Shown here: positions 19,171 through 25,925 of the stretch, in pieces
Position numbering within the stretch: position 1 is the first letter of the stretch
Layout: each line of letters begins with the position of its first letter
Source of the DNA: a virus
Lineage: Duplodnaviria > Heunggongvirae > Uroviricota > Caudoviricetes
DNA length: 53,998 bases
Virus record (IMG/VR): IMGVR_UViG_2541047728_000014
Reading direction: 5' to 3' (one strand)
The notes under the pieces: model-generated
Told to the model about the DNA's origin: nothing
Seen by the model: the letters and a program-made list of their open reading frames with translations, nothing else
The model's database searches: none
Made by a program: the position numbers and the translations under genes

Positions 19171-19898
19171 TGAATTTAGAATCCATTCTAAAATTCCACT
19201 TTCCTAAATCACCGCGATTATCTGACGAAAGCCGGGGCACGTCCCCGGACGCTCTTAATACGACGGATGCGCTAACCGCTGCGGGTATGGCGCAATCGCG
19301 CGTAGAGCTTGGATATGGCGCTTTTTTAGGGAAGATGGAACTATCACAAGCCGAAAAACATAGGGCCGTAGTTTTGCTTACAGAGCGTTTAAGGGCTATG
19401 GCGAAAGATTACGAATACGTGATGGAGTTAAACGAGGATCAGCGCAATGGACTTATTATTCTTGTTGCCGTTTTCGCGTTTCGGGATTATTGCCAGAGTG
19501 CGGCGACCGAAAAAGTTTGCCCTAAGTGCGGCGGCCACGGGCATTTACCAAATCCATATTGCAAATACACATCGACAATTTGTTCGCGGTGCAACGGCAA
19601 AGGCTACGTTAAAAACCATTGCCAACGTTGCAAGGGGCGCGGAGAAGTACCGGATAAAGCAGCCAGTGAAGCGGCGGAAATGCCAGTATTCAAAACGTGC
19701 CAGCATTGCGGCGGGCGCGGGTACTCGCGTTTCCCGGTAGATCTCGTCCGGCAGGCCGTTAACCAGCTTGTTTTCCCGGTAAGCAGATCAACATGGTGGA
19801 AGAAATACCGGGTTTTCTATGAAGACGCCATAGCGGAGCTATTCAAAGAAGAGGCCCGCGCGGAAAGCGAAATTAAACGAGTGACACGGGGTGAATAA
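19170..19898 (+). CDS. Q: Late-gene antiterminator Q (lambda Q family)
   Basis: 242 aa; N-terminus MNLESILKFHFPKSPRLSDESRGTSPDALNTTDALTAAGMAQS...FLGKMELSQAEK parallels lambda Q (MRLESVAKFHSPKSPMMSD...) as recalled; Cys-rich zinc-binding region with four CxxCxGxG units. Confidence 0.82.
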   Translation: MNLESILKFHFPKSPRLSDESRGTSPDALNTTDALTAAGMAQSRVELGYGAFLGKMELSQAEKHRAVVLLTERLRAMAKDYEYVMELNEDQRNGLIILVAVFAFRDYCQSAATEKVCPKCGGHGHLPNPYCKYTSTICSRCNGKGYVKNHCQRCKGRGEVPDKAASEAAEMPVFKTCQHCGGRGYSRFPVDLVRQAVNQLVFPVSRSTWWKKYRVFYEDAIAELFKEEARAESEIKRVTRGE

Positions 19899-20101
19899 TG
19901 GACAAGTTAGAAATAAACGATCAGTTTGCCGTTATCTTGTTCGAAGATAAAACGGGCGGCGCGTGGTGTAAGAAAGTAACTGGTGCAGAAGCGCGATTGA
20001 TATTGGGTATGGCAAGCGCATTAAACGAAGGCGAATTGCCAGCCGTACCTATTGAGCCTGTTCACATTTACGGGAGGAATAGAGAAGATGAAAATAATTA
20101 A
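19898..20101 (+). CDS. Hypothetical small protein (67 aa)
   Basis: ORF; ATG overlaps the Q stop (TAATG). Confidence 0.45.
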   Translation: MDKLEINDQFAVILFEDKTGGAWCKKVTGAEARLILGMASALNEGELPAVPIEPVHIYGRNREDENN

Positions 20102-20435
20102 TATCGGGTGGTTATATTGCGAAAACTGCGACGACGACGGCATGGTTGTTAAGACTGAAAAAGGTTGCGGCTTCTTTTTGTATCAAGGCGATAAGTTTGT
20201 TTGTCCGCGATGCGGTGGTCATGGTGAGATAGAAATTATTGAAGATAGTGCTACAGCACCAGAGCCGGAGCGCATTGTTCTTGACGAAAAAATAAAAATT
20301 CATCCTGATTTATTGCAGCAAATTATCGATCACATATCGGCAGCAGCAATCTATGCAGATAATAATTATCATCGTAAAATGAACGTAAAACGTGTTCTTG
20401 AGCAGTATTTCGAGGGTGGTGATAATGAAGCCTAA
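20088..20435 (+). CDS. Hypothetical Cys4 zinc-ribbon protein (115 aa)
   Basis: ORF 20052..20435; start placed at MKIINIGW (GGGAGG RBS); CENC...CPRCGGHG. Confidence 0.45.
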   Translation: MKIINIGWLYCENCDDDGMVVKTEKGCGFFLYQGDKFVCPRCGGHGEIEIIEDSATAPEPERIVLDEKIKIHPDLLQQIIDHISAAAIYADNNYHRKMNVKRVLEQYFEGGDNEA

Positions 20436-20694
20436 ATTAAAAGAACATGAATTCAGGGATCTTGTAAACGGAATAACTGATAAGTCCAGGACTTATTCAA
20501 ATACACAACAATTAAGGGCTGTGATAGTTACTGAATTAAGGAAATATATAGACCTAAGAGATCCGGTCGATGTTATGACGATGGACGAGGCCATCAAGCG
20601 CCGTTCGGCTGAATGGTCAGTGAGTAATACCGGATTAACCGGATATATTGAAGGCTATAACGACTGTTTACAGGATCATAGCGATGGCAAGTAA
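20425..20694 (+). CDS. Hypothetical protein (89 aa)
   Basis: ORF 20392..20694; start placed at MKPKLKEHE. Confidence 0.45.
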   Translation: MKPKLKEHEFRDLVNGITDKSRTYSNTQQLRAVIVTELRKYIDLRDPVDVMTMDEAIKRRSAEWSVSNTGLTGYIEGYNDCLQDHSDGK

Positions 20695-20992
20695 AGACCT
20701 GCATTTGAATCTGAAAGGGGAATACTTCCACGCCATCCGGGCGGGAAAGAAGGTGGAAGAATACAGGCTTTACAATGACTATTGGCGTAAACGCCTGGAG
20801 GGGCGGGAATATGAACGCCTGATCATTAAGCTGGGGTATCCAGCCAGCCACGAAGCGCACCGGATCATAAACCTGCCTTATTTCGGGTACGAAGTAAAAA
20901 CTATCACGCATCCATTATTCGGCCCTGATCCTGTTAAGGTATTCGCAATTAAATGTGATGTGAATTGGATGTTAAGGTGGGGTGAGCAATGA
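20684..20992 (+). CDS. Hypothetical protein (102 aa), possibly ASCH/PUA-like
   Basis: ORF 20648..20992; start placed at MASKDLHL; EYFHAIRAGKKVEEYR pattern is weakly reminiscent of ASCH-like folds; unverified. Confidence 0.4.
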   Translation: MASKDLHLNLKGEYFHAIRAGKKVEEYRLYNDYWRKRLEGREYERLIIKLGYPASHEAHRIINLPYFGYEVKTITHPLFGPDPVKVFAIKCDVNWMLRWGEQ

Positions 20993-21204
20993 AAAAAGCT
21001 GGCCTGTCAATCAGTCGTGTGTTGTGCGGCGACGAAAGCGAGATCCGCATAGAAATTAAATTTAGCACGGGTAAAGAGATAATTCTCTATACGACACCTG
21101 AAAACCTGACGCTGGCGCTTACTGGTAAATCTGAAACGCCGTGCGACGTCCGGTTGCGCAATATTGAGATTAAGGAAATAGGAAGGGTGAGAAATGAAAA
21201 GTAA
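20989..21204 (+). CDS. Hypothetical small protein (71 aa)
   Basis: ORF in operon packing. Confidence 0.45.
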   Translation: MKKAGLSISRVLCGDESEIRIEIKFSTGKEIILYTTPENLTLALTGKSETPCDVRLRNIEIKEIGRVRNEK

Positions 21205-21406
21205 CCGTAAACGCCTGGTAAGGTCATATGACAAAGCGTTAAAGGTTTTTGATGATCTGCGACACAATAAACGCCAGCGCCGCAAATGGGCGCGAATGCT
21301 TGTTGGTGAATGGCATAACGAAGATTTCTTTCTGGAAGCGCGGCACATGACGCAAGAAGACGCGGACCAATTAGCTTACGATAACGTTTATTATATGATG
21401 TGGTGA
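21194..21406 (+). CDS. Hypothetical small basic protein (70 aa)
   Basis: ORF in operon packing. Confidence 0.45.
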   Translation: MKSNRKRLVRSYDKALKVFDDLRHNKRQRRKWARMLVGEWHNEDFFLEARHMTQEDADQLAYDNVYYMMW

Positions 21407-21410
21407 CAAT

Positions 21411-24898: not shown

Positions 24899-25133
24899 AC
24901 CTTACAAAATCCGGTGTAAGGGAGAGTATCCGGGATTTACGATTGGGTGTGAATACCTGGGCTGTATGGGGTATGGCCCTTTTGGTGAATTAGGGATGAA
25001 TACGATTGACGACGACAGCGACAACAGGACGCTTGATCTTGATTCTGATGATTTCGAATACATCCCGCCAGTAACTTACCGCGTAGTTGATTATTTCCTA
25101 GCTGAACAAGAAGGCGAGGGCGATGATGATTGA
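24882..25133 (+). CDS. Hypothetical acidic protein (83 aa; start uncertain)
   Basis: ORF opens with TTG; Asp/Glu-rich C-terminus (EQEGEGDDD). Confidence 0.35.
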   Translation: MSASNKPYKIRCKGEYPGFTIGCEYLGCMGYGPFGELGMNTIDDDSDNRTLDLDSDDFEYIPPVTYRVVDYFLAEQEGEGDDD

Positions 25134-25323
25134 ATGTCTTATTATTGCGGTAGTTCTCCTTTACCTTGCTGGTGTAGTTTTAATGGGCGCTCTTCAGAAA
25201 GCTGTAGGTAGTGACGGCGTTATTTGGTTTGAGTTGGTTTTCTGGCCTTTCATTACAATATACGCTTTCGCTGATGCTATGCGCATCAACATCATGCGGG
25301 CCATTAAGGAGCGCAAGAAATGA
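25123..25323 (+). CDS. Small membrane protein (66 aa, two predicted TM helices)
   Basis: MMIECLIIAVVLLYLAGVVLMGAL ... WFELVFWPFITIYAFA. Confidence 0.45.
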   Translation: MMIECLIIAVVLLYLAGVVLMGALQKAVGSDGVIWFELVFWPFITIYAFADAMRINIMRAIKERKK

Positions 25324-25502
25324 TTGAAGATGGTGTGTACGCAGCAACAGTAGTCGACAGGTTGTTTTACCGCGTGGAAGGTGATGATATTCGTGTCAGT
25401 ATTGATAGCGGTGAGTGGAGAAAACCATTTATTGAGACGACGCGAGAAAACATTAAAATCATGCTTGATAATGGTGATTTGGTGAAGGTTAGCGACCTAT
25501 GA
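25320..25502 (+). CDS. Hypothetical small protein, paralogue A (60 aa)
   Basis: MIEDGVYAATVVDRLFYRVEGDDIRV...IKIMLDNGDLVKV; similar to the next ORF. Confidence 0.45.
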   Translation: MIEDGVYAATVVDRLFYRVEGDDIRVSIDSGEWRKPFIETTRENIKIMLDNGDLVKVSDL

Positions 25503-25675
25503 ACGAGATCGAAGACGGTATCTATTTGCATAAGGTATTTAACATCGTCTATTTACTTAAAGGTAATAAGGTGATGATAAGACCTGATGACGATCCATAT
25601 TGGGAATCAAGCGGCATGGATCGTTGGCATATGCAGATGTTGCTTGATAATGGCCTGATATATAGAAAGCCGTAA
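25499..25675 (+). CDS. Hypothetical small protein, paralogue B (58 aa)
   Basis: Hand-called ORF MNEIEDGIYLHKVFNIVYLLKGNKVMIRPDDDPYWESSGMDRWHMQMLLDNGLIYRKP; ATG overlaps the upstream stop (ATGA). Confidence 0.4.
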   Translation: MNEIEDGIYLHKVFNIVYLLKGNKVMIRPDDDPYWESSGMDRWHMQMLLDNGLIYRKP

Positions 25676-25692
25676 AGCCGTATTTGTTGGGG
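25667..25692 (+). repeat. Direct repeat copy 1 (GTAAAGCCGTATTTGTTGGGGG)
   Basis: About 22 of 25 nt identical to a second copy at 25921-25946; the two copies flank ORF 25698..25925 and each begins at the stop codon of the preceding ORF. Confidence 0.55.
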
Positions 25693-25697
25693 GTAAT

Positions 25698-25925
25698 ATG
25701 GAAGAAATGGTTTTACTGTCATCAATATGGCATCGGTTCGGAACTGAAAAAGGATACTCACCTGCTTGCTGGCTGGATAGTAAAAGCGGAAAGGAGTATC
25801 AAAACGAGTGCGAATTTAGAAGGGAGTGGCGAGGTGGTAAGGAAGTGCAAGGATATTTTGCACCAAAACACGTTGCCGCCAAATACAAAGAATGGCTTGT
25901 GCGTTTGCTTGGCCCTTATCGTTAA
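25698..25925 (+). CDS. Hypothetical small protein (75 aa), flanked by direct repeats
   Basis: ORF with GGGGG RBS; no recognisable domain. Confidence 0.45.
   Translation: MEEMVLLSSIWHRFGTEKGYSPACWLDSKSGKEYQNECEFRREWRGGKEVQGYFAPKHVAAKYKEWLVRLLGPYR

Follow-up and report, generated by a model that had tools for sequence, protein, structure and literature searches.

The window analysed here, a stretch of 53,998 nucleotides (nt) of virus DNA (Duplodnaviria; Heunggongvirae; Uroviricota; Caudoviricetes; IMG/VR virus record IMGVR_UViG_2541047728_000014), carries an island of 24 small genes at positions 19898-25925, between the gene for the antiterminator Q and the lysis genes. In this work we establish the coding status of these genes, their operon layout, the positions of the promoters and terminators around them, and their patterns of conservation and dispensability among related phages. 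The window phage belongs to the mEpimmI group, and we consider it probable (about 0.6) that the island forms the far end of its delayed-early right operon, can be dispensed with, and carries accessory genes directed at the host. The predicted late promoter, pR', lies in front of the holin gene and 2-7 kb from Q in this group, and the small genes upstream of it should therefore belong to the early programme.

The list of open reading frames (ORFs) for positions 17000-29000 shows the 24 ORFs as an unbroken chain on the + strand, each of 58-121 amino acids (aa), and 97.1% of the island is coding sequence. Neighbouring ORFs overlap by 1-17 nt, mostly as ATGA or by 11 nt, or are separated by 10 nt or less; the exceptions are one spacer of 92 nt and two of 22-23 nt. 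Shine-Dalgarno sequences of the GGNG type precede almost all of the starts, and the stop codon of Q overlaps the start of ORF1 (TAATG). NinF, NinG, RusA and a 60-aa ORF lie 5' of Q, and holin, lysozyme and Rz/Rz1 lie 3' of the island. The original prediction for this DNA had described about 25 densely packed small ORFs between Q and the lysis genes, and this description was borne out with an actual count of 24; the flanking genes were also as claimed, with PF03589 and 7ubm identifying Q, PF16080 the holin and PF00959 the lysozyme. The guanine-cytosine (GC) content is 0.42-0.45 in the island, compared with 0.49 in the Q region and 0.46-0.50 in the lysis genes. No tRNAs were found, and a search of positions 17000-28000 against Rfam returned no match.

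The window DNA is approximately 86% identical to that of Escherichia phages MagusPhagus, mEp010, mEp044, mEp554, mEp013, mEp021 and mEp515, and the window phage is a member of the mEpimmI group (mEp021/mEp010), a set of Nus-dependent temperate coliphages described in 2025 (PMC11893012). For comparison, 46 further loci fetched through the Q protein and three annotated phages provided a set of 48 loci containing both Q and holin, and 1,005 island ORFs were clustered into 48 families. The ratio of nonsynonymous to synonymous substitution (dN/dS; pairwise NG86 across the 48 related loci) is 0.05-0.35 in each of the 24 families of the window. All 24 are under purifying selection and are real genes, and no ORF of the island is therefore a chance ORF. 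The lowest ratios are those of the central genes ORF9, ORF11, ORF7 and ORF13, together with ORF4, and the highest are found in the variable right arm (ORF19, ORF22, ORF14 and ORF21), the fastest-evolving part, which also contains old tandem paralogues. Of 5,426 complete E. coli genomes, 35 carry the island as a prophage in the chromosome.

By its sequence, Q is a genuine homologue of lambda Q, to which it aligns in two blocks. The alignment skips residues 115-149, where the window Q has an extra zinc finger of the CxxCxGxG type (about 35 aa) that lambda Q lacks and that gives a sub-threshold Pfam match to the DnaJ central domain. Coding sequence continues without a break after Q, and the late promoter does not lie directly 3' of this gene. 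The predicted pR' cassette (25934-26012) is instead located directly before the holin, with the promoter 6,035 nt from the Q stop codon. Its -35 and -10 elements and the -10-like pause element are laid out as in lambda pR', which was fetched for comparison (TTGACT-17-TAAATT-6-AACGAT in lambda; TTGTAG-17-TAAAAT-7-AACAAT in the window), and transcription is predicted to start at about 25970. AACGAT in lambda is the sigma-dependent pause element. A tR'-type intrinsic terminator with a 7-bp GC-rich stem follows 20-40 nt downstream of the predicted start (free energy -19.5 kcal/mol including the A/U-tract extension), 20 nt before the ATG of the holin, and the Shine-Dalgarno sequence of the holin comes after it. 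The stem of this terminator is invariant and its loop alone varies (30 distinct sequences), and the hairpin is annotated as TERM_5 in mEp021 and as T9 in mEp010. So strong a terminator at this distance from the holin would be sensible only if the late promoter lay just upstream of the terminator.

The block of approximately 100 nt that comprises pR' and tR' is the best-conserved stretch among the 48 loci. Its part from the proximal spacer through the terminator shows almost no variation in any of them, even in two whose holin is different. The pR'-like motif occurs once in the whole window (25954-25981), and a second, Q-proximal copy of the late promoter was rejected for this reason. The original prediction had left two positions open for the late promoter. 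A promoter at Q, with the island genes expressed late, was not supported, given the overlap of the Q stop with ORF1 and the single motif before the holin. The other position, at about 25934, coincides with the conserved cassette, although reading of the island from pL, which had been suggested along with it, gave way to reading from the early right operon. Within the promoter, the proximal spacer AAACAAAyrGAT is kept with both variants of the -35 region, and its conservation is only suggestive of a Q-binding element. The -35 region itself (window 25928-25950; compared in the 105 nt upstream of the holin in L001-L049) exists in two unrelated versions, GCCGTATTTGTAGGGCG and CCATAATCGCGCATAAA, and by eye these do not follow the two sequence subtypes of Q. 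In the two loci with the different holin (L023 and L024; 52% identical) the pR'/tR' cassette is of an identical type, which indicates that the lysis cassette has been swapped independently of the control region.

Transcription of the island with the early genes would depend on an N-type antitermination system. The N-like protein Gp17 of the mEpimmI phages is reported to act at nutL, nutR1 and nutR2, the last of which lies shortly after the methyltransferase gene (PMC11893012, section 3.5). In the window, a boxA-like sequence (TGCTCTTTA) and a boxB-like hairpin (GCGCUGAAAUGCGU) at 17729-17762, directly 5' of ninF, probably correspond to nutR2 of that study. In the proposed mechanism, RNA polymerase would start at the early right promoter, become resistant to termination through Gp17, with nutR2 about 2 kb upstream of Q, and run through ninF-ninG-rusA-Q and on through the 24 translationally coupled small genes. 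Hairpins at 22026-22051 and 24183-24216, together with tR', would stop any polymerase lacking this resistance. The island products would thus be made with Q and ahead of the late genes, and Q would then act in trans on its own pR', pause element and tR' before the holin, 6 kb downstream of the Q gene.

The hairpin at 22026-22051 is a candidate intrinsic terminator within the coding sequence of ORF9 (-16.7 kcal/mol, z=-5.2). Its sequence hardly varies among 47 loci: in one of them two synonymous changes, CGG to CGC and ACC to ACG, compensate for each other, and another has a G.U change. The hairpin at 24183-24216 belongs to a conserved element in the sole sizeable non-coding gap of the island (24160-24238). 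This element begins with a perfect CRP consensus, TGTGA-N6-TCACA (TGTGATCTGTATCACA, 24161-24176), and continues with a 15-bp hairpin that has a UUCG loop and a U-rich tail (-19.9 kcal/mol, z=-4.8). The element is present in 36 of the 48 loci regardless of the flanking genes, and among 27 distinct sequences the variation in the hairpin stem is wobble-compatible with a single break. In mEp010 the same sequence has been called terminator 'T8' by ARNold. As both internal hairpins are stable and are kept by compensatory or wobble-only changes, they support the N-dependent early reading of the island. The intergenic element was also considered as a nut site and rejected, as its loop is not A-rich.

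A weak promoter-like sequence of the TG-extended type (TTGTTT-17-TATATA, 24194-24222) overlaps this hairpin and would put the CRP site at about -61.5. A promoter scan found 18 sites where 18.5 were expected by chance, and the candidate at 24194-24222 was not called. The best two promoter-like matches on the + strand, with 10 of 12 consensus positions each, are located inside genes, at 25624-25651 in ORF23 and at 25432-25459 in ORF22. The former precedes the optional ORF24 cassette by approximately 50 nt.

The region behaves as a variable phage accessory region. Close relatives vary in their island genes, whereas Q on one side and the pR'/holin anchor on the other are conserved. The Q-to-holin interval ranges from 2.0 kb in mEp021 to 6.8 kb, and the island is found in all 48 relatives in 41 distinct gene arrangements. 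The order of the families is strictly collinear, and the relatives differ only in the cassettes that are present. The original prediction had treated the ORFs as one-off phage ORFans; this was not borne out, and the island is instead a fixed-order array drawn from 48 families, five of them universal in a published phage group (PMC11893012). The five universal genes are ORF8, ORF9, ORF11, ORF12 and ORF13, where the count for ORF9 includes one locus (L009) with an ORF9-ORF10 fusion of 174 aa; ORF9 is a separate gene in the other 47, and mEp021_41 is included in the count for ORF12. The island of mEp021 consists of this universal block, without ORF7, and three right-arm genes. Through natural variation and not through deletions, 17 of the 24 window families are absent from mEp021, which forms plaques on K-12, and these families therefore appear naturally dispensable there. 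Plaque-forming mEp515, like mEp021, has only about 2 kb between Q and holin.

Presence and absence of genes are precise to the gene, with events located at recurring Shine-Dalgarno-N-ATGA(A) junctions that offer 5-17 nt of microhomology. ORF2 shows gene-precise presence and absence among relatives, as does ORF10, which is ATGA-bounded, and the ORF5 cassette has the microhomology GGGTGAGnAATGAAAA on either side. ORF24 is bracketed by 15-nt direct repeats (TAAAGCCGTATTTGT, 25673-25687 and 25923-25937), with empty sites in relatives. The repeat is a copy of the late-promoter -35 region, with which its second occurrence shares positions. The gene content of the island would accordingly be reshuffled by gene-precise recombination at the coupling junctions. 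Foreign cargo is rare, the only example being a gene of 239-274 aa that resembles 3'-phosphoadenosine 5'-phosphosulfate reductases (PF01507, E=2e-9) in two of the 48 loci (L009, 13520-14344, and L034). In three loci with 12-gene islands (L016-L018), a deletion has fused the N-terminal half of an ORF20-family gene to an ORF22-type C-terminal half, and the hybrid ORF is intact. The coordinates and properties of the island genes and control elements are given in Table 1.

Table 1. Genes and control elements in and around the island (window positions; presence among the 48 loci that contain both Q and holin)
Feature	Position	Strand	Description	Best PHROG match	Loci of 48	dN/dS
Antiterminator Q	19170-19898	+	PF03589 E=4.8e-30; PDB 7ubm (lambda Q) E=8e-37 and 4mo1 E=4e-23 (phmmer against PDB)			
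ORF1	19898-20101	+	67 aa, acidic	phrog_35000 E=4e-40	44	0.18
ORF2	20088-20435	+	115 aa, zinc ribbon CENC...CPRCGGHG and acidic helical tail		22	0.16
ORF3	20425-20694	+	89 aa	phrog_29262 E=7e-51	38	0.23
ORF4	20684-20992	+	102 aa, ASCH-like	phrog_625 E=8e-36	37	0.08
ORF5	20989-21204	+	71 aa	phrog_1222 E=2e-29	18	0.15
ORF6	21194-21406	+	70 aa, basic	phrog_8758 E=3e-25	44	0.21
ORF7	21411-21776	+	121 aa; absent only from mEp021	phrog_16975 E=1e-54	47	0.09
ORF8	21767-21997	+	76 aa, universal	phrog_38280 E=3e-55	48	0.13
ORF9	22008-22241	+	77 aa, universal, most constrained gene of the island	phrog_30442 E=8e-54		0.05
Terminator-like hairpin	22026-22051	+	candidate, with U6 tract; within ORF9 codons 7-15; AAGCGGGAUAAAACCCGCUUUUUUGUU; from terminator scan			
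ORF10	22238-22525	+	95 aa	phrog_33175 E=2e-65	30	0.12
ORF11	22522-22749	+	75 aa, universal	phrog_5009 E=2e-31	48	0.08
ORF12	22754-22969	+	71 aa, universal, mEp021_41 homologue			0.12
ORF13	22966-23211	+	81 aa, basic, universal	phrog_38609 E=2e-53	48	0.10
ORF14	23211-23423	+	70 aa, small all-beta paralogue family		37	0.32
ORF15	23434-23691	+	85 aa, probable ORF16 paralogue	no match	17	0.17
ORF16	23702-23938	+	78 aa, ORF14 paralogue		23	0.12
ORF17	23935-24159	+	74 aa, motif C..F..G..Y...D.xG.lW		23	0.21
Conserved non-coding element	24160-24238	+	sole sizeable non-coding gap; CRP palindrome and hairpin			
ORF18	24252-24551	+	99 aa; no Pfam match	no match	34 (including mEp021)	0.21
ORF19	24575-24898	+	107 aa, acidic	phrog_23107 E=2e-62	44	0.35
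ORF20	24882-25133	+	83 aa, TTG start	phrog_25234 E=1e-50	31	0.18
ORF21	25123-25323	+	66 aa, sole predicted membrane protein	phrog_10061 E=2e-24	42	0.31
ORF22	25320-25502	+	60 aa, ORF23 paralogue	phrog_15318	40	0.33
ORF23	25499-25675	+	58 aa, ORF22 paralogue	phrog_15318 E=9e-31	38 (including mEp021)	0.21
ORF24	25698-25925	+	75 aa, optional last cassette	phrog_23715 E=5e-56	12	
pR' -35 (predicted)	25934-25939	+	TTGTAG, then 17-nt spacer			
pR' -10 (predicted)	25957-25962	+	TAAAAT, then 7 nt to pause element			
-10-like pause element (predicted)	25970-25975	+	AACAAT; sequence layout as in lambda pR'			
tR'-type intrinsic terminator	25990-26012	+	ACCCGGCCcagcGCCGGGU, then UUUUU; 7-bp GC-rich stem			
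Holin	26033-26233	+	PF16080, E=4.5e-16; first late gene, downstream boundary of the island			
Lysozyme	26235-26726		PF00959			

Functional annotation of the island proteins is very limited. Island ORFs are 'hypothetical protein' in every public phage record of the group, and among the E. coli prophage copies the only names assigned by PGAP are 'ASCH domain-containing' or 'RNA-binding' protein. PHROG matches were obtained for 20 of the 24 ORFs, and the best match of every one is labelled 'unknown function'. Pfam searches with all 24 gave nothing above the cut-off and only weak matches to a DnaJ zinc finger (ORF2; DnaJ_CXXCXGXG, E=0.0017), KilA-N (ORF24; E=0.0065) and ASCH (ORF4). NCBIfam returned noise only, PADLOC, which covers defence systems and not counter-defence, had no match, and a PDB sequence search with the 24 ORFs concatenated was likewise negative. 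The statement of the original prediction that no ORF could be assigned thus stands for 22 of the 24, for which the Pfam, NCBIfam, PADLOC and PDB results all fell below threshold; it fails for ORF4, which is ASCH-like, and for ORF12, a homologue of mEp021_41. The zinc-ribbon protein and the small membrane protein that had been pointed out are both present, as ORF2 (CxxC...CxxCGGHG) and ORF21 (maximum 19-residue hydropathy 2.83). ORF20 is very acidic, with an isoelectric point of 4.1, a net charge of -13 and a poly-D/E tail.

ORF4 has a putative ASCH-like, PUA-like RNA-binding fold. ASCH (PF04266) is its best Pfam match, although only the N-terminal 25 residues are covered and the score of 15.9 bits (E=0.021) is below the 21.2-bit cut-off. 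Homologues with 55-61% identity carry an ASCH domain annotation in 933W, BTP1 and RCS47 (RefSeq phage and E. coli records), and a homologue in HK022 is unannotated. In BTP1, in 933W and in the PA-series relatives of 933W, the homologue borders on or overlaps eaA/DUF550-DUF551 genes in the early-left region. ORF5 has homologues in HK620 (hkaF), near the left (low-coordinate) end of Stx-phage records and in Dhillonvirus. Lytic phages of the rV5 type encode homologues of ORF11 with approximately 44% identity (rV5 ORF127), embedded in a series of short hypothetical ORFs; the homologue search for ORF11 returned nine close matches only and missed these homologues. Together, the homologues of ORF4, ORF5 and ORF11 point to a shared pool of early accessory genes.

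ORF12 is 93% identical to mEp021_41, an 82-aa protein that was detected in virions by mass spectrometry, is annotated on that basis as 'virion structural protein' and is described as conserved in all genomes (PMC11893012). Homology to structural or lysis-related genes was what the original prediction had named as counting against it, and ORF12 touches this point in part. In our searches ORF12 showed no sequence or fold similarity to structural proteins, and the RegA-like similarity suggested in the same paper was not recovered. An AlphaFold model of ORF12 (39 sequences) reached a predicted local distance difference test score (pLDDT) of 66, with best Foldseek E values of 0.66 against PDB and 0.09 against BFVD. 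For ORF14 (68 sequences; pLDDT 65.5) the model has five strands and the best Foldseek match in PDB had E=1.4. Both models are of low confidence, and the negative fold searches are therefore weak.

Several of the genes are paralogues. Profile-profile and sequence comparisons provide solid support for ORF22 and ORF23 (hhalign probability 96%, E=2e-9, with both matching phrog_15318) and for ORF14 and ORF16 (hhalign probability 96%, E=2e-9; BLASTP E=4e-5), and ORF15 is a probable paralogue of ORF16 (probability 53%, E=1.4e-4). A single superfamily of ORF14, ORF15, ORF16, ORF17 and ORF20 defined by a shared motif was rejected, because profile-profile comparison backs only the ORF14-ORF16 and ORF15-ORF16 pairs; ORF17 (hhalign probability 6.6%) and ORF20 are similar at the level of the motif. 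Adjacent copies of the same family in relatives are old paralogues that are 23-55% identical, and five relatives carry two divergent tandem copies of ORF6 (45-55% identical). ORF14 alleles are very diverse among relatives. Judged from homology searches, the ORF14-type family is confined to the mEpimmI group: its 81 close matches are all E. coli hypothetical proteins, and among 1.84 billion proteins it has 18 cluster representatives, the five longest of which are repeat proteins matching a Gly/aromatic motif.

We infer a host-directed function for the island proteins, most of which would be small soluble proteins acting singly as binders or modulators in host takeover, counter-defence or exclusion. 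The original prediction had placed the island in a typical habitat of anti-defence and host-takeover genes. Such a role is plausible by analogy and agrees with the variable accessory behaviour (41 architectures in 48 loci), but the analysis yielded no direct evidence of anti-defence. Several other points weigh against the reading of the island as early, host-directed accessory genes. No known anti-defence, toxin or host-takeover family was matched in Pfam, NCBIfam, the PHROGs categories or PDB, a dedicated anti-defence library not being among those searched. The content of the island is not hypervariable like that of classic anti-defence hotspots: its families are few, their order is fixed, and foreign cargo is nearly absent. 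We infer the delayed-early timing from sequence alone, and the CRP-consensus site with its overlapping promoter candidate means that the last seven genes might also be expressed independently. Finally, the universal, strongly constrained genes and the presence of an ORF12 homologue in virions mean that part of the island may be core and not accessory.

Some alternatives concern the coding status of the island and how it is expressed. Spurious ORFs or decaying pseudogenes within a long non-coding spacer would suit the very short length of the ORFs and the missing annotation of most, but coding sequence on a single strand fills 97% of the island, its starts are coupled and have Shine-Dalgarno sites, and the idea is already refuted by dN/dS far under 1 for all 24 ORFs and by homologues in other phage groups. 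In other lambdoid phages extra genes do occupy the position after Q, and the 24 genes could by comparison be late cargo, first on a transcript from a Q-dependent promoter at or within the end of Q, as with stx; the virion-associated homologue of ORF12 (PMC11893012) would suit late expression. We regard this as very improbable, as no intergenic space follows Q, the single pR'-type motif stands in front of the holin with its cassette and terminator conserved in all 48 loci, and a terminator 20 nt before the holin is only sensible with the late promoter just upstream of it. The genes, above all ORF18-24, could alternatively be morons expressed in the prophage from their own sigma-70 promoter, possibly under CRP control, with tR' as terminator and with a function in lysogenic conversion or superinfection exclusion. 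The perfect CRP consensus is centred about 61 bp upstream of the predicted start of the TG-extended promoter, the element is kept in three quarters of the loci (36/48) whatever its neighbours, and the segment closes with a terminator. Moron-type signs are also seen in the gene-precise presence and absence between collinear relatives and in a GC content below that of the flanks. However, the number of promoter sites is no higher than chance, the candidate was not called by the scan and its -10 lacks the final T. Where the element is missing, genes of the ORF18-24 type are still tightly coupled to the genes that precede them. Only the left CRP half-site is conserved in most relatives, and a loop that varies freely with wobble-only stem changes fits an RNA hairpin or terminator and not a -35 box; because of these two points, the moron explanation appears distinctly unlikely.

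The delayed-early accessory reading can also be compared with two alternatives that concern function. ORF8, ORF9, ORF11, ORF12 and ORF13, with ORF7, may be core machinery that serves the lytic cycle, as virion-associated or injected proteins, regulators of lysis timing or packaging helpers, and the arms alone would then be accessory. The block is present in 48 of 48 loci (ORF7 in 47), has the lowest dN/dS (0.05-0.13) and is exactly what mEp021 keeps, and its member mEp021_41 has been found in virions and in all genomes (PMC11893012). Set against this are the lack of similarity to structural, lysis or packaging families in our searches, the location of the block upstream of the late promoter, and the occurrence of the ORF11 family in unrelated lytic phages among small accessory ORFs; moreover, detection of an 82-aa protein by mass spectrometry does not prove a structural role. 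We therefore hold core machinery as a tentative possibility for the block as a whole, while a more basic phage role of some kind is probable for the five universal genes. A more specific proposal is a dedicated early counter-defence or host-takeover battery peculiar to mEpimmI phages. The paralogue sets (ORF14/15/16 and relatives, ORF22/23 and the ORF6 type) and acidic ORF20 would be diversified inhibitors of E. coli immune or housekeeping proteins, with a repertoire tuned by gene-precise gain and loss and with expression tied strictly to N-type antitermination by the position between Q and its distant promoter and by the internal terminators. We consider this proposal unlikely as it stands; if it were true, the ORF14-type paralogue superfamily would represent a new family of inhibitor folds.

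Among known systems, the lambda nin region is closest to the island in how it would work. This region (ninA-ninI, between P and Q, removed by nin5) contains about 10 small coupled genes in the N-antiterminated pR operon, has internal terminators at which antitermination is needed, and is dispensable for plaque formation. The island is alike in its small, packed and coupled genes, its candidate internal terminators and, as proposed here, its N-type reading within the pR operon, and NinF, NinG and RusA homologues lie directly upstream of Q in the window phage. However, the island has 24 genes, belongs to different families and is located downstream of Q and not upstream, so that Q is no longer the last early gene and lies 2-7 kb from its own promoter. 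The early-left ea/hka regions (eaA of P22 and BTP1, hka of HK620 and the left arm of 933W) are likewise blocks of small early genes with variable content and no assigned function. They share two families with the island, ORF4 (ASCH-like) and ORF5 (hkaF), but these are only two of 24, and the ea/hka regions are found close to int/xis, on the side of pL.

The Q-to-S interval of Stx and other lambdoid phages carries cargo such as stx, tRNAs and nanS-p, which is located downstream of pR'/tR' and is Q-dependent and late. The island likewise consists of extra genes between Q and the lysis cassette, but it is upstream of pR' and should be early. The late cassette of lambda (Q, pR', pause and tR'; PDB 7ubm/7ubn) shares with the window a homologous Q, AAC(G/A)AT at the transcript start and an intrinsic terminator behind it. 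The two differ in the distance from promoter to Q stop (about 43 nt in lambda and 6,035 nt here), in the length of the leader (194 nt and about 45 nt), in the zinc-finger insert of the window Q, and in the spacer sequence, the site of the Q-binding element in lambda, which is unrelated in the window. Phage 'accessory regions' have been defined as variable clusters between conserved genes that are enriched in counter-defence genes (Silas et al., bioRxiv 10.1101/2023.04.06.535777). The island agrees with this operational definition in being variable between Q and pR'/holin and in having small genes, most of them probably non-essential, with some relatively fast-evolving families. It differs in that no ocr, ral, abc2 or similar gene was recognised and in that its genes come from a small closed pool in fixed order and not from open-ended horizontal cargo.

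The significance of the island is modest: it is an accessory region of an ordinary kind, probably read with the early genes, and its main worth lies in a list of candidate host-manipulation genes and in the displaced arrangement of Q and pR'. This wiring is now defined at the sequence level for a newly described and common group of gut coliphages. The ordered catalogue of approximately 30 recurrent small-gene families separates a universal five-gene block from dispensable arms and can be used for screens against defence panels and for pull-downs. Any of the proteins that prove to inhibit E. coli defences would represent new families, since none resembles known proteins. The gene-precise shuffling at coupling junctions and the terminator-like hairpin inside a coding sequence also provide small, clean examples of how gene arrays may be built and insulated.

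Two genes outside the island are recorded for completeness. The 252-aa gene at 16873-17631 had no Pfam match at E<0.01 and is annotated as a DNA (cytosine) methyltransferase in relatives. A 190-aa gene at 27453-28025, between Rz and the small terminase subunit, also had no Pfam match at this threshold, and its product has a tail rich in Ala, Glu and Lys.

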